Shown: positions 3,868 through 62,326, counted from the stretch's first letter. The stretch: 64,000 nucleotides of DNA from Chloroflexia bacterium (GCA_036386675.1 DASVVE010000063.1:2279-66278); one strand, 5' to 3'. Notes: a model not told the origin generated them from the sequence alone. Numbers and translations: made by a program.

Positions 3868-3949
3868 CTGCTCTCCAGGTGCTCAGGTAGGTTGTGGGCC
3901 GTCCGGGAACGTTCCCGGACGGCCCAGCATGTTCCGCGTCAGCTGGGAA

Positions 3950-8600: not shown

Positions 8601-11600
8601 GAGGGCGAACAGCACGAAAGTAAGCGCGCCGGTCGCGCCGCTGCCCCACAGCCAGCCCAACGTGCTTGCCACCCGGAGACGAGAAGCTTGCCACCAGGAC
8701 AGCGCGCTGTTGCCTGAAACCAGGAGGAGCGGCTTTCGGTAAGCCCCTGCAAGGACCAGATTCAGGATGAAGAGCACCGCCATGACGGTAAAAGGCATGT
8801 TTATGAGGTGCGGGTGCAAATCCGCGAACAGGAACGTCCAGTAGGGAAATTCGTTGATCGTGTCGTTGATGATACGGCTGGCGTCCCAGTAGTTGAAGCT
8901 GGGGTAGTAGTTGTACATCGATTGTTCGCCGAAGCCGAGCCTGCTGCCCAGGTCCGCGATACTGCGCCCGACATCCGGGAAGGTAATCATGACCCACTGA
9001 ATCAGGCCGTGCATGTTTCCGATCACCAGCATCAGGAAGCCGGCCAGTGCGCCAAATACGATGCCCGACTGCGATACCTGGCTGGTGCTCCCACGCCGCC
9101 TCTGGCTCCAGGCGACCAGGTTGTAGACGACGCTCATACCCGCCGTGAACGTGAGCGCATAGAACAGCGGTACAGCGAGGTTGAAGGCAATGGCCGGGTG
9201 GATGCCGAGCAGCTTTACCAGGCAGGCGATAATAAAGTAGCCGTAATAGTAATAGTTGATGAAACCGCCCGCGAAGAAGGGGTCAAGGGCGGGCATCCAC
9301 GGGCTGCGAAGCACCGCATTGAGGAAGCCGATTTCCATTGGCTTCTCACCACCCTGGAACGTGTGCCAGAGGTCGGGGTTCGCCATCCGCAGCGCGAGCA
9401 CGCCCGCGAAGGCAACCAGGAACACCGCTTCATACGCCAGTACGAGGTTCCGCTTCGTCCTGAAGAATTCTCGAATTTGGCTACCCGCGCCCAGCCGCCA
9501 ACAAAGTGTGGACAGCGCCGCCAGCATACCTACCATCAACAGGAGTCCCCAGATCGTGAAGGGAATCACCCTGGTGCTCGCGGCGATCCACATGCCCCAG
9601 GCTATCATCAGCAGGGCGGCTAGCTTGGCGACTGCGTAGCCACGGTCGGGCACGTTGCGGAAGACCGTAAACACCACCGGGAGCGCCAGCAGCCCAAGGG
9701 CCTCTACCAGCAACAGCCACAGAGCTACGGCGAACCACTGAGTCTGCTCCTGGCCCAACGGGTTCCAGGCGTAGTCATCTAGCTGCGGCAGCGTATTTAC
9801 AGGCTGGGTGTAGCTCAGCCCCTTGTCGTCCTCGACTTTGCCGTTCGAGGCATCTATGGACATGATCGGGCGGTTGAGCGCGGTGCTGAACAACATGCGG
9901 TACTGGTCGTCCGTCAGTTCGCTTACCTTCTTGAAGACGTCCACGCGCGGGTGGTCGTAGACGGTAAAGCTTTCGTCGGCAGGCTGGTCGTTTATCGCGA
10001 TGCCGAATAGTTCCGGCGTTACTTGCGTGGTGTTGGCGCTGACAAAGCCCAATTTCTCGGCAAACAGCAACTCGTAGTACTTGCTCTGAACCGGGTATTG
10101 CCAGGGCAGCCGCGGGATCGAGCCATAGAGGCGGTTGCTACTCATGATGATGTAGTCAGCACGCCGCAGCCAGGTCTTGATCCGCTCAAGCTCCAGGTCG
10201 GGCTGCGCGAAGTTATACAGCTCCATCTCGAAAGCGGTGGGGTAGCCGCTACGGTCCTGCCCGTTACGCGGGGGCAAGGAAATAGGCAGGCCGTAATCCC
10301 AGTGTTCGGTCGCCAGGGTGGCCTCTCTAGGCACGTTATCGTGAATCCACTCGGAAGCCTGCACCCGCGAGTGGGGTTGGCTGTACACGTTCATGAACGC
10401 CACAGCCCACAGGAAGGCCCAACCTATGCTCAGCGCGATAAGCGCGGGGAAGACGCCGCGCTGTAAACTCACCAGGCGAACTGCCCTCCGGGAGGAGTCC
10501 GCACTGGCCCTGGCAACGAACCGCTTGCGGGACCAAATAGCTCCGCGCACCAGGAATGCAGCACCGAGAATGCAAAAGATGGGGACCAGCGGCAGCATGT
10601 ACCGCATCCACTTGCTGAGCAGCGTGGCTATAGTCAGGAAGTAAGGGATGCCCGCCGAGAGGAGCAGAATCTCGGCCGGACGGCGACGAAGCGCCTGCCA
10701 AAAGGCGGCAAGGGCACCAATCACTGACATCAGGCCGGGCACCAAGCCCATGCCCCAGAAAACCATCTGTTCAAGTTGGTATACGACGGGCGCGGTCCCG
10801 ATGTACTGCCGCGTAAACGGCACCGGGCTTAGCCCCGACTGTACGGCCTGTTCGCCTCTGATTCTCCTGGACCAGGGGTTGGACTGGATAAGGGCGTCCA
10901 GGCCACCGCTGCTTAGCGTCGAGAAGTCAAAGCTCCAAAGGACGTAAGGCTCACCGACTGCGAAAGCCAGTAGCGAGAAAACCGCAGCCAGCAGAACGTA
11001 CTTCGCCCCACCGAGCAAGTGTCCGCCAAAACTACGCTCTCTCTCCTCGGTGGTGGCGGGGGAGACACCCACGGGGTCGCCGAATTCTGCGCCAAGCCTC
11101 CTCGTTCGTTTGCGATAGACCGCGCGAAGCACCACAGCGGCCACAATGACCAGCGCGATTGGCAGCACCGAGATCTTGCATGCGACCGCGAGGCCCAGGC
11201 AGGCACCGGCCGCTACCGCTACCCACCAACGCGGCCGTTGCATGAGCACTACGCTGAAATAAACCGCCCCCATGATGAAAGTCACGAGAAAGCTCTCAAC
11301 GATGAAGAAGTGGGCGATTTGAATGGCAGTGACCGCAAACCCATACAGGGCCGCCGCGATAAGGGCTGTGCCGCTGGAATAGAGTCGTCGGGCAACCAGG
11401 AAGACCAGCAGCACGGTAATAAGGTCGAAAATGGAGGCCAGAGAGCGTCCGATGATGGCGATGCCTTCTATGCTCCTTACCCAGTAGCCGTCCGGCTGCG
11501 TAGACGTAGGGGGCAGGACCGAGTCGAGAAGCCAGCCCGTCGCACGTTCCAGGTAGATCGGGAAGGCACCCCAGGGGTACTCGTTCAATTCGTCGCGCCG

Positions 11601-11876
11601 GGTGTTGAGCGTGCTCACATGCCAGTCGAAAATGTCCTCGTTCCTGGAGGGCCAGTTGATCTGCGGCGTCGTATAATTGAGGATCGACATCTCGTCGGGG
11701 TTCTGCCAGGTGCCCTGGTCGTACATGCGCCCGTAGAAGCGGAAGAAGGTGGCGCACGCCATAATCAACACGAGGAGCAACAACACCCTGTGCCGCCGCC
11801 AGAACGGCTCGCGTTCTCGCCCGGCTGCTTCCAGGGGCCGATCTACCGACAGGGTGGTAACATGCTGTGAAGACAA
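5682..11876 (-). CDS. Giant polytopic membrane protein: N-terminal GT-C/PMT-like glycosyltransferase module, two hydrophobic 'Chlor_Arch_YYY' (DUF2298-type) modules, C-terminal TPR repeats
   Basis: 2064 aa. N-terminal module has its first TM followed by a loop with NPDE (Asp-Glu as in GT39/GT83 loop 1), many TMs, then a soluble segment beginning EHWDYG at about residue 525. YYYxG motif (GGFINYYYYGYF, nt ~9240–9260). Long low-complexity acidic/Gly inserts. C-terminal ~160 aa are TPR-like repeats. Architecture matches the TIGR03662 description (N-terminal region + 2 YYY copies + 3–4 TPR). Confidence 0.8.
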   Translation of the reverse strand: MSSQHVTTLSVDRPLEAAGREREPFWRRHRVLLLLVLIMACATFFRFYGRMYDQGTWQNPDEMSILNYTTPQINWPSRNEDIFDWHVSTLNTRRDELNEYPWGAFPIYLERATGWLLDSVLPPTSTQPDGYWVRSIEGIAIIGRSLASIFDLITVLLVFLVARRLYSSGTALIAAALYGFAVTAIQIAHFFIVESFLVTFIMGAVYFSVVLMQRPRWWVAVAAGACLGLAVACKISVLPIALVIVAAVVLRAVYRKRTRRLGAEFGDPVGVSPATTEERERSFGGHLLGGAKYVLLAAVFSLLAFAVGEPYVLWSFDFSTLSSGGLDALIQSNPWSRRIRGEQAVQSGLSPVPFTRQYIGTAPVVYQLEQMVFWGMGLVPGLMSVIGALAAFWQALRRRPAEILLLSAGIPYFLTIATLLSKWMRYMLPLVPIFCILGAAFLVRGAIWSRKRFVARASADSSRRAVRLVSLQRGVFPALIALSIGWAFLWAVAFMNVYSQPHSRVQASEWIHDNVPREATLATEHWDYGLPISLPPRNGQDRSGYPTAFEMELYNFAQPDLELERIKTWLRRADYIIMSSNRLYGSIPRLPWQYPVQSKYYELLFAEKLGFVSANTTQVTPELFGIAINDQPADESFTVYDHPRVDVFKKVSELTDDQYRMLFSTALNRPIMSIDASNGKVEDDKGLSYTQPVNTLPQLDDYAWNPLGQEQTQWFAVALWLLLVEALGLLALPVVFTVFRNVPDRGYAVAKLAALLMIAWGMWIAASTRVIPFTIWGLLLMVGMLAALSTLCWRLGAGSQIREFFRTKRNLVLAYEAVFLVAFAGVLALRMANPDLWHTFQGGEKPMEIGFLNAVLRSPWMPALDPFFAGGFINYYYYGYFIIACLVKLLGIHPAIAFNLAVPLFYALTFTAGMSVVYNLVAWSQRRRGSTSQVSQSGIVFGALAGFLMLVIGNMHGLIQWVMITFPDVGRSIADLGSRLGFGEQSMYNYYPSFNYWDASRIINDTINEFPYWTFLFADLHPHLINMPFTVMAVLFILNLVLAGAYRKPLLLVSGNSALSWWQASRLRVASTLGWLWGSGATGALTFVLFALNLGALLVINSWDFPTYLGLAGGGAVVALLLLGRPRREWQAGAPAASDTSLRSHLTFREQVGMYGTALASVGLLAGLSLLAYLPFFLNFKAFYTAINALVDGGRIADTAEFMHRTTVGEFLVVWGLFVFIAASYLVYRLWHFPWTAAVDSLMGVLPRAAERPTTDLAPQQAFTLFGSGDRQRQGSGLVPALALPQGAPLPLDPVRFVRGSGEGTLDEQESTQEVDGRAAPEGTPPTNGPADSGGNGAVATTTDGNGNNPSSGGWLSAASAEADKTLKVRRRVTLGAVTATPFPGLSDSVDDSELGMHEVAVPAQSPVARTEAVEPGLIPLWAGLGLLGITAGLVVLQMVTGQWLLALLVALLGGIAATTLSTSRTAGNLFCGLLMMGALAVATGVELVYLADHLSRSDKFRMNTVFKFYMQVWVLWALAGASAIYYMLFGLREHALGTAGEREERLDETDSSLSAHGASVPTSSQTAVNSASHPAPRETQGSDGNRGAEPENWLVWSMEHASDATDVAQVEHTAPAADRVSGPAPLDITHGKDQEQEGPAIRWTVGRLVWLGAFALLLMSSLAFTFLGTPDRLVKRFGATPPAGTLNGLAFMTSAVFTADIGPDVPPVQVNLKYDYEAINWLNSNVKGAKVLAELPVEYYRAYGMRAAANTGLPMVVGGLHQEEQRYGWLVGDRRSDMNTFFTTPDVQVVLTLLSKYDIDYIYLGQLEQARAGATGMRKFEQLADPDVNILREVFRTQQPEGIAGTIIYEVVRDPARKVSTLVGAPVANSGIPGVSFTPIPAPTATPMPTPPTDDPELRALLDLVALDPLNRDNRFKLVDWYRQHNFPLDAARELETLVTQDPSNVALRHMLGDAYQQGGEPDKALKAWEDARDIDVNNPAGHNKVGIAYLDRKRMDDAIREFQATVERDPRFVEAYYHMGQAYQLKGDRENAIASYQKVIDNAPAGAEGWVDAARQRLTEVR

Positions 11877-17025: not shown

Positions 17026-19035
17026 GTGGGTACGATGGGGCTATTGCAACCACTTGCGCTCCTGGCGCTACCCCTGGTCGGGTTCATTCTCGCACTTTAC
17101 TTGCTGCGATTCCGGCGGCCCAGCGCGCCGGTTGGTAGCCTCCACCTTTGGGACAATCTCACACGCGACCGAGAGGCGAACTCCCTGTGGCAGCGACTGC
17201 AACTCACGGGTCTCTTGCTGCTCCAGCTGCTGGTGATGTTGGCCCTCATCCTGGCGCTCGCGCGTCCGTGGGTACCGTCCGAGACTGCTGCCGGACAGAA
17301 CGCGATCATAATCGTGGACACGTCAGCAAGCATGGGCGCCATGGATGGCGGCACCAGTCCCCGGAAAAGCAGGCTTGAGGCCGCCCTTGAAAAGGCACGC
17401 AGCCTGGTGGACGACCTGCCGCAGGGTGCAATTGCCGCCATCATTACCTCTGATGAACATGCCGCCGTTCTTGTGGCCCCGACTGACGATAAGTCTAGGC
17501 TTCGGGACGGTCTTTCTGGGCTGCGGCCTCAACCTACGGGCACCAACATGTACGAGGCTATTCAACTCGCTTCGGTGCTCGCGCAGAAGCAATCGAACGC
17601 AGTAATATGGGTGCTCTCCGACGGTATATTCCCCGCGACAAGAGGGAACGCCGAACAGGTGCCGGCGGAGGTACGCTATTTCTCCGTGGGGCGCGCCGCT
17701 TCCAACCAGGCCATCACCGCCATATCCGTCGACCAGCGTGGGGGTAGTCTGGGGCTGTTTGTGCAACTCGCCAACGCCGACAACCTGACTGTGACGCGCA
17801 GACTGGACGTGCTTGTGGATGATGCTCACTGGAACGCGCGCACGGTGTCGTTGGGGCCGCTCGAGACGCAGGAATTGATCGTCGACGACCTGCCTATCGA
17901 CGGGCGAGTGATAGCGGCGCACCTGGACGGCCTCGATGAGCTTGAGATAGATGACACGGCCTGGACGGTGAACAGGGCGAGCGTGCCTGCCAACGTGCTT
18001 GTGGTGACGAACGGCAACAAGTTCCTGGAACTCTCCCTGGCGCTACTGCCGAATGTTACCCTTTACAAGGTGGCACCGGCCGAATACGACCCTGGCGCTA
18101 CCCTTGAAGGTATACCCTTTGACCTGACGGTGCTGGATGCCGGAGTCGTCTCACCTACCTTGTCCAGGCTGCCTGACGGTAACATGCTCATCTTTGAACC
18201 GAAAGCCTCAACGTCTATCTTCACAATCGGGGACCAGATTATTGCGCCGGTGCCTTCGTTCTCTCCCCTGGAGTCGGGGGGGCTGTCCAGCACGTCCGAG
18301 TCCTCCGGACGCGACCCACTGCTGCGGTTCGTGGACCTCTCCAACTTACATGTCTCCCAGGCGGCCCAGGTCAACCTGCCCACCTGGGGCCACGCCGTAC
18401 TCGGGAGCGACAAAGGTCCTCTGATCATCGCAGGCGAGGAGAGTGGCCGTAAGGTGAGCATTGTTGCCTTTGACCTACAGCAGAGTGACCTTCCATTACA
18501 GATGGCGTACCCATTGCTCATGCGCAACCTTGTCACGTACCTGCTGCCTGACCCTACAGGAGGGGTGCCCGTAGCCGTCACGCCAGGCTCGATTGTCACG
18601 GTGGATGCCGTCGACCAGGCGGTGAACAAGCTGCTGGTGGAAGACCCCTCCGGCAAGGAGTGGACATACGATCTGGTACCGGAACGGAGGCGGGTAGCCT
18701 TCCCGGAGACACGGCAGCCTGGAGTGTATTACATCACCCAGTACGCCCTCGAGGAAATAGTTGCTCAGGAGGCGTTTGCCGTCAACCTGGCCTCCCGTGA
18801 CGAGTCAGCCATCCGCCCCAACCCTGAGCCTGGCTTGCCCGTAGGCGTCCGACCGAACGCCGGTGCAACGACGGTGTCGGACGGCAACCCGTTCCGCCGC
18901 GAGTTTTGGCCTCATGTTGCGGTTGCGGGCTTCGCTGTGTTACTGGCTGAGTGGTTTATTGCACAACGTCTCACACTACGACGCGCCTTCCTGGAATGGC
19001 GCAACCGCCGTGCCCTTCGCAAGTTGAGCACTTAG
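17026..19035 (+). CDS. BatA-like protein: N-terminal double-TM aerotolerance-regulator domain + von Willebrand A domain + long C-terminal region + C-terminal TM
   Basis: 669 aa; N-terminus LLALPLVGFILALYLLRFRRP (BatA_N/TIGR02226-type); vWA MIDAS IIVDTSASM; C-terminal hydrophobic helix. Confidence 0.75.
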   Translation: MGTMGLLQPLALLALPLVGFILALYLLRFRRPSAPVGSLHLWDNLTRDREANSLWQRLQLTGLLLLQLLVMLALILALARPWVPSETAAGQNAIIIVDTSASMGAMDGGTSPRKSRLEAALEKARSLVDDLPQGAIAAIITSDEHAAVLVAPTDDKSRLRDGLSGLRPQPTGTNMYEAIQLASVLAQKQSNAVIWVLSDGIFPATRGNAEQVPAEVRYFSVGRAASNQAITAISVDQRGGSLGLFVQLANADNLTVTRRLDVLVDDAHWNARTVSLGPLETQELIVDDLPIDGRVIAAHLDGLDELEIDDTAWTVNRASVPANVLVVTNGNKFLELSLALLPNVTLYKVAPAEYDPGATLEGIPFDLTVLDAGVVSPTLSRLPDGNMLIFEPKASTSIFTIGDQIIAPVPSFSPLESGGLSSTSESSGRDPLLRFVDLSNLHVSQAAQVNLPTWGHAVLGSDKGPLIIAGEESGRKVSIVAFDLQQSDLPLQMAYPLLMRNLVTYLLPDPTGGVPVAVTPGSIVTVDAVDQAVNKLLVEDPSGKEWTYDLVPERRRVAFPETRQPGVYYITQYALEEIVAQEAFAVNLASRDESAIRPNPEPGLPVGVRPNAGATTVSDGNPFRREFWPHVAVAGFAVLLAEWFIAQRLTLRRAFLEWRNRRALRKLST

Positions 19036-19046
19036 TAGAAGGAAAC

Positions 19047-21746
19047 ATGGAGCTACCGTTCAGCATCACCGAGCCGCGCGCTCTCATACTGCTTCTTGCC
19101 GTCCCGCCTGTCGTGTGGCTTGGGATATTGACAGCGCGCGCTCGCCCCAGGGACCGCTCGCGCATCGCCACGAGCACCGTCATTCGCGCCCTCATCCTGA
19201 CATTTATCACGCTTGCGGTCGCCGGCACCCAGTTCATCGCGTCTGGAGGCCCCCTGAATGTTGTATTCCTGGTGGACCGATCGGCCAGTGTGTCCGAGGC
19301 AAGCAAGCAGTCCTCGTTCGACTTCGTGCGACAAGCCATTGGGGCTATGGGGCCGGACGACCGGGCGGCGGTGGTGTTGTTCGGAGAGAATGCCATACTC
19401 GACCGGGCATTGAGCGCGGATACCATATGGGCTGCCGCGGGCAAGGAGCCTTCGGCGCTGGCGACCGACATTGCCGACGCGATCCAGGTGGGCACCGCAC
19501 TTTTCCCCGAGGGCGGCGCGAAGAGGCTCGTGCTCCTGAGTGACGGGGTGGAAACGGTCGGTGAGGCCAGGAGCATAGCAGCGGGAGAGGTGCTGTCCGG
19601 TATCCAGTTATCGGTGGTACCCCTCGGCGAGACCGCACAGAATGAAGTAGCGGTGGACCGGGTGGTAAGCCCGAACAGTGTGCCTTCGGGCCAGCAGATA
19701 CCCGTAAGGGTACTTGTAAAGAGCAACAGCGACAGGGCGGCGACCGTGACACTGTACGACGGCGACACCCCTGTCGCGACCGAGGACGCGCAACTGAAGG
19801 CTGGTGACAACGTCCTTACCTTTTCCACCGAGGCCCGCGAGCAGGGCTTTCACGTTCTCAAGGCGCGAGTAGACTCCGTCGATGACCGCTTCAGCGAAAA
19901 CAACGAAGCACTGTCTTTCACCATCGTGAAGCGACCGCCCACCGTCCTCATTGTCAGTGGTGCCGAGGCGGATAGCCTTGCGCTTCAAAATGCGCTGGAG
20001 GCGAGTGCAATCGAGGTGGATGTTGTTGCGTCGGTTGGCCTCCCCCGCGAGGCAAAGAACATCGGGCAGTACGATGCTATAGTCCTTGCCAATGTTTCGG
20101 CTAGCTCGCTGGAAATCGAAGGGCAGCAGGTGTTGCAAAGCTACGTGCGAGACATGGGACGCGGCCTCATCATGATAGGCGGCGACCTCAGTTACGGGGC
20201 CGGCGGCTACACTAGGTCCCCTATCGAAGAGGTGCTGCCGGTGCGCATGGACGCACGCACCTCGGAGGAGCGGGCCTCCCTTGCAATGACCTTCGTCGTG
20301 GACAAGAGCGGCAGCATGGGCCGATGTCACTGTGGAGGCAACCAGCAGTTCAACCCCAACATGCGGACGGAGTTCGGTGAGAGCAAGATTGAGCTGGTGA
20401 AGCAGGCTATAACCAAGGCCACCACGCTCCTCAATTCCAGCGACCAGGTGGGCGTAATCACATTCGATGAGCAACCAACCTGGCTGGCGCGCCTGCAACC
20501 CATAGCGGAACTTGGCGAGCAACGACTCGAACAGCTGCTACAGCCGGTGGAGGCGCAGGGCAACACAGACATGTTTGCTGCCCTCTCGCAGTCCGTAGAG
20601 TCGCTTGAGACCAGTAACGCACAGCTAAAGCACATCGTCTTACTGGGCGATGGTTGGAGCAAGCACTCGGATTACGACCAACTCCTGGAGCGTATGTCCG
20701 CCGGCAATATCACGCTTTCCACAGTAGGTGTCGGCGATGGCGCTGACGAGCTGATGCACGACCTCGCGACCAGGGGAGGAGGCCGCTTCTATGCAGCTAA
20801 GGATGTCACCACGGTGCCCGACGTCCTGCTCAAGGAAACGATCCGGCTCGCAGGCTCATACTACGTCGAGGAGGCGTTCACCCCGGCGGTGGAGCGCGCT
20901 AGCCCTATCCTGAACGGGATCGATACGGGAGCCATGCCGCCCCTGCTCGGCTACAATGCCAGCACGATCAAACCGGAGGCGGATCTGATACTCCGCTCTC
21001 CTCGCGGCGACCCGCTCCTCGCACAGTGGCAGTATGGACTCGGGCGTGCAGTCGCCTGGACCTCGGATGTGAAGGGACAGTGGGCGGCTGACTGGGTGGA
21101 GTGGCCCCAGTTCGGCAAGTTTATGGGACAGATGGTCAGTTGGACGCTCTCCCGGCAAGACAGCATTGGTCTGGAGGCTACGTTCTCAAGCCGGGCTGAC
21201 GCACAGGGAGTCGCGCAGGAAGTCGCCGTGCGAGTGGACACTGTCACGGTCACGGGCGCGCCCCGCAACTTCCTGCCGACGAGCCTGGTGATTACTGACA
21301 CCCTGGGCATCTCGACTACAGTTGAGGTTTCACCGCGCTCGCCTGGGGTGTACGATGGGATCGCGCACGGGCTGAGTCCGGGCGCGTATGCCGCCACAGT
21401 GGAACAGGTGCAGGCCGAAACCGGGGAGCTGGTGGAGCGGCTGGAAACCGGCTTCATCGTACCTTATCCGAGCGAATACCGGCTCTCCGGCGACTCGACG
21501 GCTGGCGCACAGGCATTGATGGCTGACCTAGCGCAGCTCGGTGGTGGAAGGGTACTCGAGATAACGCAGCCAGCTTCAGCGTTTACTCACGACATATCCC
21601 CTGAGCCACGGCGCTTAGCGATGTGGCCGTGGCTGATACTGGCGTCCATATTGCTTTTCCCGCTGGACGTAGCGGTACGGCGTGTGAGTCTTACGCCCCG
21701 CGAATTGTGGCGCTTGCTGAGGGGGCGAACACCGGACGATGCCTGA
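19047..21746 (+). CDS. BatA/BatB-like protein with N-terminal double-TM domain and two vWA domains, C-terminal TM
   Basis: Start reassigned to the ATG at 19047 (RBS AGGAA 8 nt upstream, 11 nt after the upstream stop) rather than the ORF-track 18951. vWA 1 VFLVDRSASVSE, vWA 2 TFVVDKSGSMG; C-terminal TM WPWLILASILLFPL. Confidence 0.7.
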   Translation: MELPFSITEPRALILLLAVPPVVWLGILTARARPRDRSRIATSTVIRALILTFITLAVAGTQFIASGGPLNVVFLVDRSASVSEASKQSSFDFVRQAIGAMGPDDRAAVVLFGENAILDRALSADTIWAAAGKEPSALATDIADAIQVGTALFPEGGAKRLVLLSDGVETVGEARSIAAGEVLSGIQLSVVPLGETAQNEVAVDRVVSPNSVPSGQQIPVRVLVKSNSDRAATVTLYDGDTPVATEDAQLKAGDNVLTFSTEAREQGFHVLKARVDSVDDRFSENNEALSFTIVKRPPTVLIVSGAEADSLALQNALEASAIEVDVVASVGLPREAKNIGQYDAIVLANVSASSLEIEGQQVLQSYVRDMGRGLIMIGGDLSYGAGGYTRSPIEEVLPVRMDARTSEERASLAMTFVVDKSGSMGRCHCGGNQQFNPNMRTEFGESKIELVKQAITKATTLLNSSDQVGVITFDEQPTWLARLQPIAELGEQRLEQLLQPVEAQGNTDMFAALSQSVESLETSNAQLKHIVLLGDGWSKHSDYDQLLERMSAGNITLSTVGVGDGADELMHDLATRGGGRFYAAKDVTTVPDVLLKETIRLAGSYYVEEAFTPAVERASPILNGIDTGAMPPLLGYNASTIKPEADLILRSPRGDPLLAQWQYGLGRAVAWTSDVKGQWAADWVEWPQFGKFMGQMVSWTLSRQDSIGLEATFSSRADAQGVAQEVAVRVDTVTVTGAPRNFLPTSLVITDTLGISTTVEVSPRSPGVYDGIAHGLSPGAYAATVEQVQAETGELVERLETGFIVPYPSEYRLSGDSTAGAQALMADLAQLGGGRVLEITQPASAFTHDISPEPRRLAMWPWLILASILLFPLDVAVRRVSLTPRELWRLLRGRTPDDA

Positions 21747-36760: not shown

Positions 36761-36800
36761 AAAAGGCCCTCCTGACACCTGAGCAGGAGGGCCTTTTCTC
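36761..36800 (+). terminator. Rho-independent terminator after the SLH-amidase gene
   Basis: GGCCCTCCTG–9 nt loop–CAGGAGGGCC followed by TTTTCTC, 16 nt after the stop. Confidence 0.6.
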
Positions 36801-39495: not shown

Positions 39496-39534
39496 AAAAG
39501 AGTCGCCGGGCGTGTTTGCCCGGCGACTCTTTTA
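39496..39534. terminator. Bidirectional intrinsic terminator between convergent pepA and ABC-ATPase genes
   Basis: AAAAGAGTCGCCGGGC–loop–GCCCGGCGACTCTTTT; A-run and T-run flank a GC-rich stem. Confidence 0.55.
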
Positions 39535-46060: not shown

Positions 46061-46105
46061 AAAAGAAGGCCAGGGTACACCGTTTGGTACCCTGGCCTTC
46101 TTTTT
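46061..46105. terminator. Bidirectional intrinsic terminator between convergent genes
   Basis: GAAGGCCAGGGTAC–8 nt–GTACCCTGGCCTTC flanked by AAAA/TTTTT. Confidence 0.55.
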
Positions 46106-53358: not shown

Positions 53359-53745
53359 CAGAGACCCCCCTTCGAGGATTGTTGGTGCTCACTCTACTCT
53401 AGAACACTGCTCACTTTCCATGCCGTTCCATGGTCACTTGATGCTCAATGTGCGAGGCGGTGTGGAGCTCCTCAGTCTGTTCAGGTGGTAACGTCGCCTA
53501 TCCTTATGGCGCACGACGTATATGGTTATGGCACCCCCTCTTATAGGTGGTGCTGCGATGCTATACTACCACCCCTTTGGGTGTATGTAAATAGCGGAAT
53601 AATTAGTAATGAGAATGACTCTTCTCAGAACCTATGTAGGGGGTCGGGACCCATTTTCTAAAGCGAGTTCCGGGATATAGTATAATCTGTCTCGAAGCTC
53701 ACACTGTTGGCTATGCTCACTTAGTAGTTTCTGAGTCAAAGGCTC

Positions 53746-54735
53746 ATGGGGAAACGCGTGATGTCAAAGCCTAACTCGTCCAGACGCAGGTCCAATCCAA
53801 CAGATAAGACGATACCTGACGGACGCAACAACACCTCTGTTGCTCCATTTGCTGGAGGTTTTGTAGGTTTGGGACTTGGTATTCTGGGCAATTTGTTGGC
53901 TAGTTGGCTTGAACCTGCTATTCTGCAGGACGCCTTTTTACCCTGGAACTTGGTAGCTATTATTGCGCTAATTGTAATCGGTGTCGTCCTGGGAGTACGG
54001 GCGCAGGGTGGGAAATTCACTTGGTTCCTCAACCAAAACACATACTGGTCACTTCTGATCTTTGTTGGAGTTGCGTTGCTAGTTATTATTTTGCTCAGCG
54101 TGATAACCCGTAGGACGCCAGTTCTGTACTTCGTAATTGATACTACTGCTAAAATGCAGCCAATCTTCAATGATGTGCGTCGCGAGGTCCAATTATCAAC
54201 CAGTCTCGTTCCCCGCACTTTTAAGATTGGACTTCGAACCTATGGTGGAAGCGCTGACAATATTCCAAACTGCCAGGACACGGAGCAACTATTGCCCCTT
54301 CAGACTTATGACAACTTCAGTGCACGCATAGATAGTGTGCTTGCAAGGTTACAGCCCAGGGGCAATGGCTCTTTGACAGGGGCGGTGCTAGAGGCTATTT
54401 ACACAGATCTTGCGAACGAAAACAATCACATTCAGATGCTGGTCGTAACTTCTGGAACCGATCCGCTTTGCGATCCAACGGGTGGCGGAATATTGGAAAG
54501 GCGTGCAAAGGAGGTCAAGGACAATTTGGAGGTGATTATTATCAGTATTGGAGAGATAGACGCGAGCCGCAAACAGATCCTCAACAGCTACGCTGAAGCA
54601 TTTAACGGCAGGCATATAAATGTACCTACGGCGGCGTCATTGCATTCTATCGTGCAGAATGCCGCTTACTATGGATATGGCTATTACGGCGATGGTACAT
54701 TCCCTGGCGAGCCGGATGCAACACTGGTGCCGTAA
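53746..54735 (+). CDS. Membrane protein with 3 N-terminal TM helices and a degenerate vWA-like domain
   Basis: 329 aa; TMs at ~40–120; VLYFVIDTTAKM…GLRTYGG…VVTSGTD reminiscent of a vWA fold with a non-canonical MIDAS; Tyr/Gly-rich C-terminus; AT-rich codons. Confidence 0.55.
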   Translation: MGKRVMSKPNSSRRRSNPTDKTIPDGRNNTSVAPFAGGFVGLGLGILGNLLASWLEPAILQDAFLPWNLVAIIALIVIGVVLGVRAQGGKFTWFLNQNTYWSLLIFVGVALLVIILLSVITRRTPVLYFVIDTTAKMQPIFNDVRREVQLSTSLVPRTFKIGLRTYGGSADNIPNCQDTEQLLPLQTYDNFSARIDSVLARLQPRGNGSLTGAVLEAIYTDLANENNHIQMLVVTSGTDPLCDPTGGGILERRAKEVKDNLEVIIISIGEIDASRKQILNSYAEAFNGRHINVPTAASLHSIVQNAAYYGYGYYGDGTFPGEPDATLVP

Positions 54736-55915
54736 GTTGGTAGATAATCCTGCCCTTGGGCACAAGGTAAGTTCTGGGCTTTTTTCCTTGCTGACCTTAG
54801 TAATAGGTCTGGTTATTGGAGTATTAGTTCTCAACCCGCTTTGGGGAACACTCGCCCAGCCCAACTTATTTCCGGCAGCTATATTGCCTCCAATCACAGG
54901 CCCCATTGACGGCCTATTTTATATTCGTAATGCCGAGCTGGGTTATGCATGGAGCACCCGCGACCCACTTAGTCTTTGGTTCCACCCCCTGCTGTCTAGT
55001 TTCTTACAAGTACTGCCAGGTTGGCTGCCAAAGAATAGCTGGTTCTGGCTTATTAGCTTAGTGTTTGCGGCGGCTTGTTTGCCACTTATTTTTCGGTTGA
55101 CAGTTATTCTGACTGGGAATAGTAGCGTACAGCCGAAAATGATCCCCTTGTGCCTAGTGGCACCCGGTGGGCTGTCTCTAGCCACGGGTAATGCTGAAAT
55201 TCCTACATTGTTTTTCTCAACTTTACTACTGCTTTCAGTCCTCGCTTGGGAGAAGTGGTGGCTGACCGTAGTGTCCGCCGCGGCAGCTATCCTGACAAAG
55301 CCAAATGCTCTGTACATGGTGGCTGTATTGTTCATATATTTCCTTTTCGCAGTGGCAACAAGGAACCTGAAGCTGTGGAAACATTCACTGCTAGGGATGG
55401 CCGCGTTACTTGGGGGCTGGCTTATCTGGATCTGGATCGTTGATTGGCAGACAGGGCATCCTGGAGCCTACTGGGAAGCTCGCCTAGCTTTTAGCCCCTA
55501 TTCCGGTCCTGTAGATCTGCGGGGATTCTTTGAGCAATGGCTCAATGCGTTCCTCGTAGATGATTTGCGCAATCAAATTCGGTTCTCAACAGCTATCTTG
55601 ATACCGATGGTCAGCCTAATTGTAATTGGTCTCGTGCCATTTGCATCGGAACCCCACCGTTATGCTTTCGCAGCAGGTAATCTAGCCATGCTGATCATTA
55701 GTTTAGCTTTGGGCAACCCAAACAAAATATTGCTGTATGCAACAACATTACCCGGCTACTTTGTGACGCATTTAGTTCTGCTGGCATGGCTCATAAGCCA
55801 GCGTCGGCAGCAAAATATGGGTGCTCGTTGGCTCGTTGGCGCTTGTTATCTAGCTTATTGCGTCGGCATGCAGGTCGTTTACGTAATTGGAACGCCCTTG
55901 GGTTGGTACTTCTAG
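54620..55915 (+). CDS. Polytopic (≈12 TM) membrane protein, GT-C-like / unknown function
   Basis: Start uncertain: candidates are the ATG at 54716 or the TTG at 54737, immediately after the upstream stop at 54735. Uniformly hydrophobic with large extracytoplasmic loop 1; AT-rich codons. Confidence 0.5.
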   Translation: MYLRRRHCILSCRMPLTMDMAITAMVHSLASRMQHWCRKLVDNPALGHKVSSGLFSLLTLVIGLVIGVLVLNPLWGTLAQPNLFPAAILPPITGPIDGLFYIRNAELGYAWSTRDPLSLWFHPLLSSFLQVLPGWLPKNSWFWLISLVFAAACLPLIFRLTVILTGNSSVQPKMIPLCLVAPGGLSLATGNAEIPTLFFSTLLLLSVLAWEKWWLTVVSAAAAILTKPNALYMVAVLFIYFLFAVATRNLKLWKHSLLGMAALLGGWLIWIWIVDWQTGHPGAYWEARLAFSPYSGPVDLRGFFEQWLNAFLVDDLRNQIRFSTAILIPMVSLIVIGLVPFASEPHRYAFAAGNLAMLIISLALGNPNKILLYATTLPGYFVTHLVLLAWLISQRRQQNMGARWLVGACYLAYCVGMQVVYVIGTPLGWYF

Positions 55916-56032
55916 CACTTTGTACCAATAGATTAGGCGGACATGGAGCCAGAAAGAGCGCGGATTTCTGTTCATGACTCGAAGGCGAATAACACAGCAG
56001 ACATGTGGTGCATGTGCTAATCTACATGCACC

Positions 56033-57091
56033 ATGCGCATTGTTGACGATAGGTACAGAGAGGCTGGCCTCGGAAATGAGGACGTTGCAGGTCGAGACTC
56101 CGCCATAGTGCTGGCTCGTGCTGGAACTCATGTGACTACACTTGCCCTGCGACATCAACCTAGCGCTGACCAACACCCCGCCACGGTTTACCTTGCAAGG
56201 CTGGCCCCTGGCTCTCGGCGCACCATGTCCGAAGCCCTGAATGTAGTGGCAAGCATACTCACCACGAACCGCTACGACATGCAAAGCCTCGATTGGAGCG
56301 CCTTACGCTACCAGCACACTGCCGCCGTTCGCTCGGTGCTGGCCGACCTGTACGCACCCACTACCGCCAACAAGATGCTGGCCGCGTTGCGGGGGGTTCT
56401 TAGGGAGGCGTGGCGGCTAGGGCAGATGAGCGCCGAGGACTACCACCGCGCCGCCGACTTGCCTTCGGTGCGAGGCACAACGCCTCCCAGAGGCCGCGCA
56501 CTGGATGGAGACGAATTGGGGCAGCTATTCGCCCGCTGCGCCCTCGACAAGTCGCCTGCGGGGCTTAGGGACGCCGCTATGCTTGCAGTGCTGTATGGCT
56601 GCGGGCTGCGGCGTAGCGAGCTTGTGGCGCTGGACGTGAGCGACTACGTGACCAAGGACGGCGCGTTGCATGTAAGGTCGGGCAAGGGGAACAAGGCGCG
56701 CACCAACTACGCCACGGGCGGCGTGCGCAACGCTCTGGAAGCCTGGCTCAAGGCTCGTGGCAAGGCAGCGGGACCGCTATTCTGCCCGGTGAACAAGGCG
56801 GGGAAAATTACCTTCCGCAGGCTCACCGACCAGGCTGTACGCAAGATGCTGCTTAAGCGAGCCAAAGAAGCCGGAGTTGAGCACTTCTCTCCCCACGACC
56901 TGCGCCGTAGCATGATTGGCGACTTGCTCGACGCTGGGGCCGATATCTCTACGGTGCAGCGGCTGGCCGGGCACGCCAATGTCACCACAACGGCGCGCTA
57001 CGACAGGCGTGGAGAGGCGGCCAAGCGCAAAGCAGCCGAGTTGCTTAGCGTACCCGTCACACCTGCCCCTAACGACGCAGACACAGAATAG
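56033..57091 (+). CDS. Tyrosine site-specific recombinase (phage-integrase family)
   Basis: 352 aa; C-terminal catalytic region with R…HDLRRS…[16 protein letters not shown] (R-H-R-Y tetrad-type motifs) and an N-terminal SAM-like DNA-binding domain. Confidence 0.85.
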
Positions 57092-57116
57092 ACCCGCTGC
57101 TATAGGGGTCTATTCT
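57085..57116. other. Perfect 11-bp stem hairpin overlapping the integrase stop codon (candidate att core or U-less terminator)
   Basis: AGAATAGACCC–10 nt–GGGTCTATTCT; no following T-tract. Confidence 0.5.
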
Positions 57117-57138
57117 GAAGAATCCGACGGGCAAGCCG

Positions 57139-57561
57139 TCAGTCGTCAGCTTCCCCAGTACGTTCGGGGTTCTCGACCCCAAGTAGCCGGTTCCAGAGCT
57201 GGTAATCTACTTCGGTCTTCGGCACGTACCAATTCTCCGGCCCTGCCTCCATATCGCCCCACGCGGTAAGCTCCTCTGGGGCCTCCGAGCGCAGGTCGAT
57301 ATAGGTAGCGTTCTGCTCCAGCCTGCTGCCCACCGGTAGGACCGTGAGCTGCTTAAGCTCGTCGTCGGTGAACCCTTCCAGGCTATTGTGCAGGTCCTTA
57401 ATGTCGTAGGCGGTCCTCACGCCGTCCGCCTTCTCCGGGTGCAGTCCCTGCACGCCCTCATTTTGCCCGGCGTTGTCGTCCGGTCGCAGGTCCTGGTCCC
57501 AGTACCTGTCCTCCTCGCTGAAGCTTGCCGAACCACCACCTCCACCACCAGTCGCGCCCAT
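57139..57561 (-). CDS. Hypothetical acidic protein with Gly-rich N-terminus
   Basis: Start at the Met 57561 (SD GGGAGG, 5-nt spacer) rather than the ORF-track 57615; 140 aa; no recognised domain. Confidence 0.5.
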   Translation of the reverse strand: MGATGGGGGGSASFSEEDRYWDQDLRPDDNAGQNEGVQGLHPEKADGVRTAYDIKDLHNSLEGFTDDELKQLTVLPVGSRLEQNATYIDLRSEAPEELTAWGDMEAGPENWYVPKTEVDYQLWNRLLGVENPERTGEADD

Positions 57562-57562
57562 C

Positions 57563-57865
57563 TCAGCCTCCCTGTGTGCTTGGGCCAGCATTCGAGTCGC
57601 TGCCACTGCGTCCACTGCCGATATCCGAGTCCCGCGCCCTTACGCTGTCTTCGATTGAGGGTTTGTCGCGGGTGTCCTCGTTCCACTCGTTGCGTTGTTG
57701 CGCCGGTGGCCTGTCGGTGTCCTGCCCCTCGGCCGCCTGGCGAGCGTAGGTCTCCTGCTTCTTCGGAGTCCCGGTAGTAACGTCTACGCTCTTCGACGGA
57801 TTGTTAGGACCCTTGGACTGGTCCTTGTCGTCAGAGTCGTTATTGTGCTGTCCCTGCTTTGCCAT
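57563..57865 (-). CDS. Small highly hydrophilic disordered protein (stress-protein-like)
   Basis: 100 aa, about 50% D/E/K/R/Q/N/S, no hydrophobic core; GGAGGT upstream; ends 1 nt before the next start. Confidence 0.45.
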   Translation of the reverse strand: MAKQGQHNNDSDDKDQSKGPNNPSKSVDVTTGTPKKQETYARQAAEGQDTDRPPAQQRNEWNEDTRDKPSIEDSVRARDSDIGSGRSGSDSNAGPSTQGG

Positions 57866-62110: not shown

Positions 62111-62326
62111 TGTTTAGCTTCCTCCTGGTTGTACTGCTCGACCAGCGTCGATACTTCTCGGCATTATAACATTTGTGCCCTGATTGGTCATGTGGCCTTA
62201 GTGTAGCTTTAGGGGATATGTAAACCAAGCGGGCCGCGCCTTTTTTGACGTACAAATGCGCAACCTTAGCGACTGCGCATTTGTAACGTAGCTGCTACCT
62301 ATGAACCGGCGCTCAATAGCTCAATA

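Follow-up and report, generated by a model that had tools for sequence, protein, structure and literature searches.

The locus and its base composition

Two genes, here called A and B, form a compositional islet within the window, the whole stretch of 64 kb that was analysed. Both lie on the same strand between an AT-rich stretch and the gene of a tyrosine recombinase (Table 1). The GC content of 53400-55900 is 0.487, compared with 0.610±0.013 in the remaining 2.5-kb windows of the profile (minimum 0.580; z -9.7). The computed profile is not uniform, and the islet is the sole such abrupt drop in the 64 kb. GC3 amounts to 0.494 in A and 0.499 in B, against 0.646-0.763 in eight neighbouring genes, so the shift concerns codon usage too, beyond amino-acid composition.

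The abrupt change of composition and codon usage named in the original prediction was thus found, as was its onset with a non-coding AT-rich stretch, given there as 390 nt. The right edge had been placed just after the integrase. This was not borne out: the shift ends before that gene, whose GC content of 0.639 and GC3 of 0.66 are those of the backbone. The claim that the cargo was acquired horizontally agrees with the foreign composition of A and B. Three public contigs from this species have no called gene in the AT-rich stretch, an Rfam search gave zero matches, and no sequence conservation was seen with the regions upstream of homologous cassettes. The window copy of A-B is flanked by housekeeping and envelope genes.

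Table 1. Features of the islet and its right flank in window coordinates.
Feature	Position	Strand	Remarks
Compositional islet	about 53359–56040		2.7 kb, two genes; based on GC and GC3
AT-rich stretch without called gene	53359..53745	.	386 nt, GC 0.488; left islet edge, 5' of gene A
Gene A	53746..54735	+	329 aa; TM, vWA and Tyr-rich tail
vWA domain of A	54121..54672	+	residues about 126-309; two invariant cysteines, partly degenerate MIDAS
Tyr-rich C-terminal tail of A (AAYYGYGYYGDGTFPGEPDATLVP)	54661..54732	+	pLDDT 36-42
Gene B	54737..55915	+	392 aa from TTG 54737; about 12 TM helices, GT-C fold
Inverted repeat, perfect 10-8-10	56006..56033	.	91 nt past the B stop; touches first integrase ATG
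Tyrosine recombinase	56033..57091	+	PF00589, 1e-32; intact-looking; neighbour of the cassette
Inverted repeat, perfect 12-10-12	57084..57117	.	spans the integrase stop; between the convergent integrase and a 158-aa ORF

Protein A

Protein A (NCBI start 53761, 324 aa, HEX8599821.1) has a basic cytoplasmic N-terminus, three TM helices (33-60, 66-86, 97-120), an extracytoplasmic vWA domain and a tyrosine-rich tail. The cytoplasmic tail of the window protein comprises about 30 residues only. The vWA domain has the Rossmann-like vWA fold. Compared with the MIDAS pattern DxSxS...T...D, D132 is invariant, position two is Thr, position three is unconserved, and 'TDG' has become 'TSG-x-D'. A is anchored in the membrane, with a cytoplasmic N-terminus and the vWA domain on the outer face. 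The outside location of the domain follows from single-TM variants with an N-terminal TIR or EAD; the basic N-terminus and the two invariant cysteines are further evidence for this topology.

The tail is flexible, tyrosine-rich and Pro/Thr-ended, lies at the outer face of the cytoplasmic membrane and is predicted to be disordered and extracytoplasmic. Among 92 representatives of the A family, tyrosine makes up 12.5% of the last 25 residues versus 2.8% elsewhere (4.5-fold). At least two tyrosines are present in 97% of the tails, and proline is the final residue in 47%. The three TM helices, the degenerate vWA fold and the Tyr/Gly-rich tail had all been predicted, and the tail proved to be kept across the family.

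BatA/BatB-type TM-vWA proteins of aerotolerance/MoxR operons resemble A in their N-terminal TM anchor and vWA domain. The A-B locus differs in having no BatA_N, MoxR or DUF58 partner; the Tyr tail, the two invariant cysteines and the GT-C partner set the A family apart from them. A genuine Bat-like cluster, separate from A-B, is located at 17026-21746 of the window. One homologue has been labelled 'DUF58 family' by JGI.

Protein B

The start of B is ambiguous. Translation from TTG 54737 yields a product that fits the homologue lengths of 390-392 aa, while the alternative start ATG 54677, used by public gene callers, gives a product of 412 aa (P0001) that overlaps A. The NCBI entry HEX8599822.1 (414 aa) shares a 90%-identity cluster with B. 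Of the juxtaposition TAA-G-TTG reported for the A/B junction, the sequence is present (CCG-TAA-G-TTG at 54730-54739); TTG as the start of B is ambiguous against ATG 54677.

By its fold, B is a putative minimal GT-C membrane glycosyltransferase without a soluble domain. It has the multi-pass membrane fold common to OST, PMT, ArnT and ALG enzymes, and its best fold matches are ArnT, PimE, Aft and ALG. The fold comparison therefore agrees with the original prediction for both cargo proteins, a vWA fold for A and a GT-C-like protein of 12 TM helices for B. Enzymes of the GT-C class transfer sugars from polyprenyl-phosphate-linked donors on the outer membrane face, and lipids or glycans are commoner acceptors than proteins. 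D58, invariant in 40 homologues, is located in the external loop between TM1 (13-39) and TM2 (99-126) and is a presumed catalytic residue. This first external loop is long and contains short helices, and conserved basic residues suit polyprenyl phosphate binding. All three traits are shared with GT-C enzymes. The closest members of the superfamily are minimal ones without a soluble domain (PimE/GT87, PIG-M, ALG3) and, among protein-modifying members, AglB/PglB OST, PMT and DPY19.

B differs from the known GT-C families in its own motifs (PVDGxFY..NAExGY, SLWFHPL, KPNALY, GNPNK and the C-terminal GTPLGWY), in having no family match in Pfam, NCBIfam or PDB, and in its pairing with a TM-vWA protein. 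For the window protein, Pfam and NCBIfam searches gave zero matches even at E 10, as did the comparison with PDB sequences. Only 2 of 74 homologues came barely above the cut-offs of Pfam PMT_2 or GT87. Membership in a named GT-C family (PMT/GT39, GT87, GT83, others) was rejected for the window protein, as none of its matches exceeded a curated threshold.

The A-B pair in other genomes

In about 18 of 23 independent (non-redundant) loci, mostly from Chloroflexota, B is immediately preceded by A, so the neighbourhood search proposed with the original prediction confirmed the co-occurrence. The remaining loci comprise one frameshifted A, three A partners without vWA domain and one locus (L032) without an A-like gene upstream of B. 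The three vWA-less partners retain the TM region and the Tyr tail. Their homology to the TM region of A (z 7.8) is modest, hhalign having recovered an 11-residue TM motif only. A single metagenomic contig carries a natural in-frame deletion of 186 nt, through which the A vWA domain runs straight into the first external loop of B, a topologically consistent fusion.

The loci are unrelated in genomic context, defence or mobile genes being frequent neighbours, and no conserved third gene was found alongside A-B across them. Donor-synthesis or flippase genes of the gtrA/gtrB type linked to A-B were likewise not found. In the closest relative with long contigs, A-B is flanked by SLH surface proteins and an nSTAND NTPase, and an integrase is absent. 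A and B travel together through unrelated genomic contexts and form a true conserved two-gene membrane cassette of a vWA and a GT-C fold. The GC content of the cassette is below that of its flanks in 14 of 15 other loci; beside recent transfer, a family-specific constraint could be a partial cause of the low GC. A two-gene membrane cassette without described counterpart had been claimed, and none was found in Pfam, NCBIfam, PADLOC, PMC7159879 or PMC8195603. A, B and the integrase had no matches in the PADLOC search, where matches were limited to the TIR parts of fused A homologues (ThsB or PDC-S35).

Signalling domains and conflict-system context

About 30% of the A-family proteins carry a cytoplasmic TIR, Death-like adaptor (EAD1, EAD7, bDLD1), caspase-like CHAT, trypsin or HTH domain. 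These N-terminal fusions include TIR_2 and CAP12-type TIR, HTH_31 and also DUF4062. Neighbours at other loci comprise nSTAND genes with EADs, which adjoin the cassette in L001/L005, SLATT, CHAT, ResIII helicases, HSDR_N, an SMC-like ATPase, a transposase and a group II intron RT. The association with defence islands was judged by inspection of about 10 loci.

The EAD/Death-like/TIR conflict systems of multicellular bacteria have been described by Kaur, Burroughs, Iyer and Aravind (eLife 2020 and 2021; PMC7159879, PMC8195603). The A family uses the same vocabulary of EAD1, EAD7, bDLD1, TIR, CHAT and trypsin. A-B shares the host range, filamentous Chloroflexota, and nSTAND NTPases, SLATT and CHAT as neighbours. 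Domains of the vWA type are frequent in conflict systems, in one case within a multi-TM protein with extracellular vWA; the vWA-MoxR ternary systems combine a cytoplasmic vWA, a MoxR ATPase partner and C-terminal effectors (PMC7159879, PMC8195603). A-B is unlike the latter, its vWA domain being extracytoplasmic and C-terminal, MoxR absent and the constant partner a GT-C enzyme.

Given the output domains fused to about 30% of the family, A-B resembles, on sequence evidence, a membrane module of receptor type from bacterial conflict systems. The suggested role in surface modification, exclusion or defence is in keeping with the TIR, EAD, bDLD and CHAT fusions and with the defence-type neighbours at several loci. 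The window copy has no output domain, as is the case for most members, the minimal form being commoner. Unlike the EAD/TIR conflict systems, it has zero adaptor or effector domains, and no STAND, MoxR or GTPase NTPase core was found within 5 kb of A-B in the window. Assignment of this copy to the Kaur-Aravind EAD/TIR systems was rejected on the absence of both an adaptor/effector domain and a linked NTPase core. With no output domain and with housekeeping and envelope flanks, a conflict role of the window copy is an extrapolation from its relatives.

Some homologues (L009, L012, P0082, P0112) combine a cytoplasmic TIR, a TM segment and an extracellular domain of ligand-binding type, an analogy in architecture only to Toll-like/ectodomain-TM-TIR receptors. 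The TIR is N-terminal (inverted) and the ectodomain is vWA, not LRR. Common descent of the whole architecture has no support, and the window copy has no TIR.

The neighbouring recombinase

The catalytic residues R-K-H-R-H-Y of the integrase were picked out by eye, and the ORF appears intact. XerC and XerD models scored far under their cut-offs. At 52-54% identity, its nearest relatives are integrases encoded on plasmids, from Nostocales and from Chlorohelix (a Chloroflexota plasmid); they adjoin defence cargo and IS elements, e.g. a dnd cluster on the Chlorohelix plasmid. Phage integrases are only about 30% identical. The phage-type integrase of the original prediction is a tyrosine recombinase according to PF00589; 'phage' is the Pfam name only, the relatives being plasmid-borne.

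The structured DNA noticed at both integrase ends consists of perfect inverted repeats, which are of an ordinary type. The window contains seven perfect hairpins whose arms reach 10 nt or more, where 0.45 would be expected, and as all seven are located at gene 3' ends, the structured DNA is attributed to terminator-type hairpins, two of which merely flank the integrase. The upstream hairpin most likely terminates the A-B transcript. The downstream one is of the terminator type.

The recombinase might have inserted a 3.7-kb unit of leader, A, B and int, and might still excise it, with the inverted repeats as recombination sites. An apparently intact recombinase directly downstream of cargo with foreign composition resembles integrase-bounded islands and integrons, its plasmid relatives stand beside defence cargo and IS elements, and the 10-8-10 geometry is that of a recombinase core site. 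Nevertheless, this origin is markedly unlikely. The backbone GC and GC3 of the integrase argue against a recent joint arrival with the cargo, and the inverted repeats belong to the class of seven hairpins. No second copy of the repeat or convincing half-site was found at the left boundary, no direct repeats bracketing the region were found in the window, and tRNA genes are absent from the entire 64 kb, in accordance with the original prediction, which had recognised none at the boundaries. A flank comparison revealed no empty site either: three public contigs with an identical flank protein all carry the same arrangement, a weak piece of evidence since close relatives are thinly sampled. Outside the window's own species, the A-B loci have no recombinase homologue, save a fragmentary ORF 4.5 kb off in L018. 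An integrase-mobilised island is therefore not supported, with the integrase outside the foreign segment, no attL/attR, no empty site and no co-occurrence of cargo and integrase, and neither is the idea of a cassette carried by a recombinase. An integron was rejected: integron-integrase models gave only 65.7 and 50.5 bits where their cut-offs are 265 and 435, cargo and int point in the same direction instead of diverging, and a search for attC-like repeats found none. The integrase beside the cassette is taken to be a resident recombinase of plasmid type, its link to A-B being unproven.

Proposed mechanism and alternatives

The function of A-B can be inferred only. B may glycosylate the exposed C-terminal tail of A, or may grip it in its acceptor groove; the tail would be a recognition or acceptor element for B. 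This proposal derives from the membrane anchor and Tyr tail being the sole part of A present in every B-linked partner. Mature A would be a surface receptor or envelope sensor. For the roughly 30% of the family with an output domain at the cytoplasmic N-terminus, an outside ligand or envelope damage would act on that domain, leading in the cell to NAD+ depletion, proteolysis, STAND NTPase recruitment or transcription. The window copy without output domain would be at most a glycosylated surface vWA protein, with adhesion or a decoy function among its conceivable roles; it could also be a sensor that works by its three TM helices or through a partner from another locus. Horizontal acquisition of the islet as a two-gene cassette, a previously undescribed A-B family and this receptor mechanism are taken as one explanation, which is put forward tentatively, its probability falling somewhat short of even.

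B may add a sugar to a cell-wall polysaccharide, an S-layer glycan or a lipid without any signalling. A would then be an accessory subunit whose vWA domain binds or positions the acceptor, and the cell would gain from an altered surface, for example by keeping phages from adsorbing or by a change in adhesion. Lipids or glycans are the targets of most GT-C enzymes characterised to date, among them the fold matches ArnT, PimE, Aft and ALG. Envelope genes are abundant in the window genome (including an SLH-amidase and a giant PMT/DUF2298 protein), a relative's cassette is flanked by SLH-domain surface proteins, and the majority of the family has no cytoplasmic output domain. Such a modification is rather unlikely: it leaves unexplained the cytoplasmic TIR, Death-like, caspase, trypsin and HTH fusions of about 30% of the family, as well as the Tyr tail, not the vWA domain, being the always-kept B-linked part, and donor-synthesis or flippase genes do not accompany the pair. 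It is very unlikely that A and B are the killing end of an abortive infection, disrupting the membrane or depleting lipid-linked precursors after recruitment by STAND NTPases via EAD-EAD contacts or activation by TIR products. According to the 'EAD principle', an EAD identifies its protein as an effector that is drawn to an NTPase core (PMC7159879, PMC8195603); the fusions of A to EAD1, EAD7 and bDLD1 and the EAD-bearing nSTAND genes beside the cassette fit this principle. However, the HTH, TIR and protease fusions better suit 'sensor plus output' than 'effector plus effector', highly conserved catalytic-type residues of B and the folded ectodomain speak against a simple pore, and minimal forms would be constitutively present without a trigger.

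A remnant of prophage lysogenic conversion, with B as a serotype-converting GT-C glycosyltransferase beside a phage integrase, is largely refuted and hardly credible. Gtr clusters place a GT-C enzyme (GtrC) beside int-attP, and the GT-C gene of the window adjoins an integrase in the same way. The window neighbourhood has no phage genes, though, and equivalents of gtrA and gtrB were not found. B has no relatives among 2.9 million viral contigs and no significant structural match among viral proteins, and the distance of the integrase from phage integrases also opposes such an origin. A prophage Gtr-type module was rejected on these viral and phage-gene searches and on the missing conserved third gene.

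The receptor mechanism can be extended to a fuller reading, fairly improbable as a whole, in which transmembrane receptors for immunity or cell death form a new bacterial class, with A-B as their constant core. The B-glycosylated Tyr tail of the vWA ectodomain would perhaps be attached to the wall or S-layer. The ectodomain would sense phage attachment, envelope breach or neighbour-cell contact, and the signal would be relayed across the membrane to modules that can replace one another, of the TIR, Death-like, caspase or HTH type. The window copy would represent an output-less ancestral or decoy form. Toll-like receptors and the O-mannosylated wall sensors of yeast would be analogues of this core.

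Significance

The original observation was partly confirmed and its interpretation partly supported. The corrected annotation of the window is a foreign segment of 2.7 kb with two genes, of which the integrase and the hairpins are not demonstrated members. The B family is a GT-C family still to be characterised, for which the fixed genetic pairing provides a candidate protein substrate, and this makes its acceptor specificity directly testable. To our knowledge, the bacterial immune sensors characterised so far are almost all intracellular. If the proposed reading is true, filamentous bacteria would have a candidate for outer-face surveillance in the outward vWA domain, which a membrane anchor connects with TIR, Death-like or caspase domains, and the widespread A module would form a structural parallel to animal receptor-TIR signalling.

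Composition and boundaries of the islet

The gene pair A and B lies in the single deep GC trough that a sliding profile revealed in the entire 64-kb window. GC is 0.487 at 53400-55900 versus a mean of 0.610±0.013 and a minimum of 0.580 in the remaining 2.5-kb windows (z = -9.7). The shift is one of codon usage, because GC3 is 0.494 in A and 0.499 in B versus 0.646-0.763 in eight neighbouring genes. The original prediction of an abrupt change in base composition and codon usage was largely right as an observation, and the AT-rich non-coding stretch said to open the islet was recovered as 386 nt inside the trough for which no caller predicted a gene. The right end was misplaced. The trough extends from about 53359, where a divergently oriented 120-aa gene starts, to about 56040, and thus ends before the integrase, which has backbone composition, and not just after it. 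An RNA element in the 386-nt leader was rejected: Rfam gave no match at E up to 1, and comparison with the leaders of homologous cassettes revealed no conservation. As expected from the lack of a tRNA at the boundaries, none was found in the 64-kb window. The window flanks comprise ordinary chromosomal genes for GH1 glucosidase, DUF446, cupins, CopCD, carboxylases and SLH-amidase.

Coordinates of features in the window and in loci of other genomes and metagenomes (L numbers)
Sequence	Position (strand)	Feature
Window	5682-11876 (-)	giant 2064-aa membrane protein, PMT/PMT_2 (GT-C), DUF2298, C-terminal TPR repeats
Window	17026-21746 (+)	separate Bat-like cluster: BatA_N+VWA_2 protein and 931-aa VWA+GATase1-like protein
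Window	53359-53745	leader, 5' of A
Window	53746-54735 (+)	gene A, 329 aa
Window	54737-55915 (+)	gene B
Window	56006-56033	perfect inverted repeat, 10-8-10
Window	56033-57091 (+)	tyrosine-recombinase ORF, GC 0.639, GC3 0.66
Window	57084-57117	perfect inverted repeat, 12-10-12
Window	57139-57865 (-)	two small ORFs (158 and 100 aa), mutually overlapping, convergent to integrase, backbone composition
Window	3895-3926, 36764-36794, 39499-39530, 46067-46098, 62253-62283	five further perfect hairpins, each just 3' of a stop codon
L009	9143-10408 (-)	gene without Pfam family, convergent to B, immediately 3'
L012	9267-10523 (-)	homologue of the preceding gene, same position
L009	10409-12807 (-)	second TIR-TM-vWA-tail gene (382-410 aa), then 256-aa gene
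L030	2440-2520	in-frame deletion, metagenomic contig
L031	3065-3250	corresponding undeleted region, metagenomic contig
L034	1-369 (+)	two-TM protein upstream of cassette
L046 (NZ_CP128401.1)	316462-329433	Chlorohelix allophototropha plasmid, closest Chloroflexota relative of window integrase

Gene A and its family

The product of gene A has no match in Pfam, NCBIfam or PADLOC. Its basic N-terminus is followed by three helices of membrane-spanning length and a domain of vWA topology, in which the MIDAS motif is partly retained (D132-x-T134, with 'TSGxD' in place of 'TDG'). The protein contains two invariant cysteines and ends in a tail of 24 residues (AAYYGYGYYGDGTFPGEPDATLVP) with predicted disorder. 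When 1.84 billion representatives were searched exhaustively with HMMER, 132 family proteins had E values of 1e-10 or lower, 55 of them 1e-30 or lower. Tail statistics were obtained from the last 25 residues of the 92 core members whose C-terminus is complete. Tyrosine accounts for 12.5% of these residues versus 2.8% elsewhere, proline is 2.6-fold enriched, and 97% of the members carry at least two tyrosines in the tail. The final residue is proline in 43 of the 92 (47%), as in the window at 54730-54732, and glutamine in 17. This terminal residue could be a recognition feature, or it could be connected with slow Pro-stop termination and translational coupling with B.

At least 95 cytoplasmic residues precede the first TM helix in 28 of the 92 core members. 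The N-terminal extensions recognised by Pfam are TIR_2, CAP12/Pycsar-type TIR, EAD1, EAD7, bDLD1, CHAT, trypsin, HTH_31 and DUF4062. Single-TM variants bear an N-terminal TIR or EAD, which fixes the topology, with the enzyme or adaptor domain on the cytoplasmic side and the vWA domain and the tail outside. In a remoter branch, the proteins contain Ser/Thr kinase domains, and their long C-terminal extensions lack the Tyr tail. The 931-aa protein of the Bat-like cluster in the window matches the A-module profile weakly (E 0.006), which is general vWA similarity only.

Gene B

The window protein B likewise has no match in Pfam, NCBIfam or PADLOC. Its model, built from 40 homologues, reached a pLDDT of 93 and a pTM of 0.93. 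B is a minimal GT-C member of 392 aa without a soluble domain. Across 40 sequences the invariant positions include D58, which lies in the long first external loop, as well as H83, K188, R249, N329 and K330. Such a pattern would be expected if a GT-C enzyme is active, and B is presumably active. The Pfam cut-offs of PMT_2 and GT87 were barely passed by two distant homologues. The predicted TAA-G-TTG juxtaposition of both genes is present at the junction, which reads CCG-TAA-G-TTG. Public gene calls start B at the upstream ATG 54677 (412 aa); the TTG is favoured as putative start because homologues are 390-392 aa long. Given the giant PMT/DUF2298 protein in the window, the host already has large GT-C-type enzymes that are not related to B.

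Conservation and transfer of the pair

A word-indexed protein search returned 74 clusters of B homologues and five of A homologues, and a second one with the A profile added only two proteins. About 23 non-redundant contexts were obtained around B homologues, mostly from Chloroflexota MAGs and soil or wastewater metagenomes. Co-occurrence of the two cargo genes elsewhere was confirmed: at about 18 of these loci, the ORF directly upstream of B matches the A-module profile. At one more B locus A is frameshifted, and L032 has no A-like gene. In a divergent B branch of three loci, the upstream gene encodes a short three-TM protein without vWA, ending in a similar Tyr-rich tail. Pairwise alignment of its TM region with the nearest full-length A (from L015) was significant (z 7.8), alignments with three other A proteins were not. 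Profile-profile comparison of the vWA-less partners with A was weak (11 columns, 21% probability) and covered the TM1 motif only.

All-against-all BLAST of the neighbours identified no conserved third gene across 18 loci, with the sole exception of the gene 3' of B that the two TIR-bearing loci L009 and L012 share. It is absent from the window, and the TIR versions may have in it a third component of their own. The second TIR-TM-vWA-tail gene in the L009 genome is followed by a gene that appears, by its size and contig, to be a truncated B homologue (P0054). This second copy suggests that the cassette has undergone paralogous expansion or decay. Two metagenomic contigs, L030 and L031, are 99.9-100% identical apart from an exact in-frame deletion of 186 nt in L030. 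The deletion fuses the vWA domain straight to the first external loop of B, with loss of the A tail and B TM1. This fusion is topologically consistent with a position of both parts outside the membrane.

In the closest long-contig relative (A 59%, B 73% identical), SLH surface proteins flank the pair on one side and an nSTAND-TPR NTPase on the other. The locus contains no integrase, but close to the pair there is another nSTAND gene, with EAD2 and EAD8. Neighbours at other loci include SLATT, CHAT, ResIII helicases, a HSDR_N nuclease-type protein and an SMC-like ATPase as well as, of mobile type, a DDE transposase and a group II intron reverse transcriptase. The two-TM protein upstream of the L034 cassette resembles, by eye, SLATT or a TRADD-N-associated membrane domain. 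At 14 of 15 loci, cassette GC is below flank GC, and the gap sometimes reaches 20 points. The low GC together with the unrelated flanks indicates that the pair has been transferred horizontally, repeatedly and as a unit. The predicted horizontal acquisition of the cargo, read from its foreign composition, is thereby supported.

In host range and in its vocabulary of EAD, bDLD and TIR domains, the A family matches the conflict systems of Kaur et al. (PMC7159879, PMC8195603). These papers describe cytoplasmic vWA-MoxR ternary systems, and a single multi-TM protein whose vWA domain is extracellular receives a brief mention. The TM-vWA and GT-C pair is not described in them, and a full-text literature search combining GT-C, von Willebrand and TIR found nothing. 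Together with the lack of matches in Pfam, NCBIfam and PADLOC, this agrees with the suggestion that the two-gene cargo has no described counterpart.

Integrase, inverted repeats and phage origin

Alternative readings take the cassette as an islet borne by the adjoining integrase, as originally predicted, or as a prophage Gtr-like remnant; the integrase-borne islet is not supported. The integrase (PF00589) looks intact, its catalytic residues having been identified by eye. Scores against XerC, XerD and integron models were far below the cut-offs. The integrases most similar to it (52-54% identity, 90-95% coverage) are plasmid-borne site-specific enzymes of Nostoc, Anabaena, Tolypothrix and Chlorohelix (Chloroflexota); phage integrases share about 30% identity. 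The L046 integrase directly adjoins a dndBCDE phosphorothioation cluster, IS21 and IS4 elements and a DNA methyltransferase. The family may mark defence-cargo hotspots on plasmids. A search of all fetched loci found the integrase only in three contigs of the window's species and, as a fragment, in L018. Neither the direct repeats nor the empty site of an integrase-borne island was found: a repeat search at 52.5-58.5 kb gave chance-level pairs, none bracketing the region, and an exact-protein look-up of the left-flank gene led to three contigs, all with the insert. Near the left boundary, the 56006 inverted repeat has a single half-site, which carries one mismatch and is no better than expected by chance. 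Owing to its restricted occurrence, the lack of bracketing repeats and the same arrangement in all three contigs, the integrase is therefore treated as a neighbour of the cassette. It may have had a past role in capturing it, since its family adjoins defence cargo on plasmids. A phage origin was rejected; B has no relative in IMG/VR and no significant fold match in BFVD. Of the two small ORFs beyond the integrase, the 158-aa one is acidic and the 100-aa one rich in polar and charged residues; neither has a family match.

Structured DNA at both integrase ends is real, and both repeats are perfect, but they are more likely of terminator type than recombination sites. Perfect hairpins with arms of at least 10 nt occur seven times in the window versus 0.45 expected under a first-order Markov model, all at gene 3' ends. 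One of the two repeats begins 91 nt past the B stop; the other spans the integrase stop between convergent genes. Both are most simply transcription-terminator hairpins, and the reading as recombination sites was rejected on this basis. Regions upstream of integrase homologues have no equivalent repeat. Long perfect hairpins that lack T-tracts seem to serve as terminators in this genome.

Proposed function

GT-C enzymes use lipid-linked sugar donors and act at the outer face of the membrane. The sole feature of A retained in every B-linked partner is the membrane anchor with an exposed Tyr-rich, Pro/Thr-ended tail. For these two reasons B is proposed to recognise and glycosylate the Tyr-rich tail of A. 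Alternatively, A might be an accessory subunit of a glycan-modifying enzyme, or a membrane effector recruited through EADs. Following tail glycosylation by B, A would be a surface vWA receptor or envelope sensor. Versions with a cytoplasmic TIR, Death-like, protease or HTH domain would relay outside events inward, probably by clustering. The cargo is a horizontally mobile, previously undescribed two-gene membrane module, tied to bacterial conflict systems by comparative data; its function is inferred. The window copy of A carries no output domain and may serve in adhesion, as a decoy, or as a sensor via other partners.
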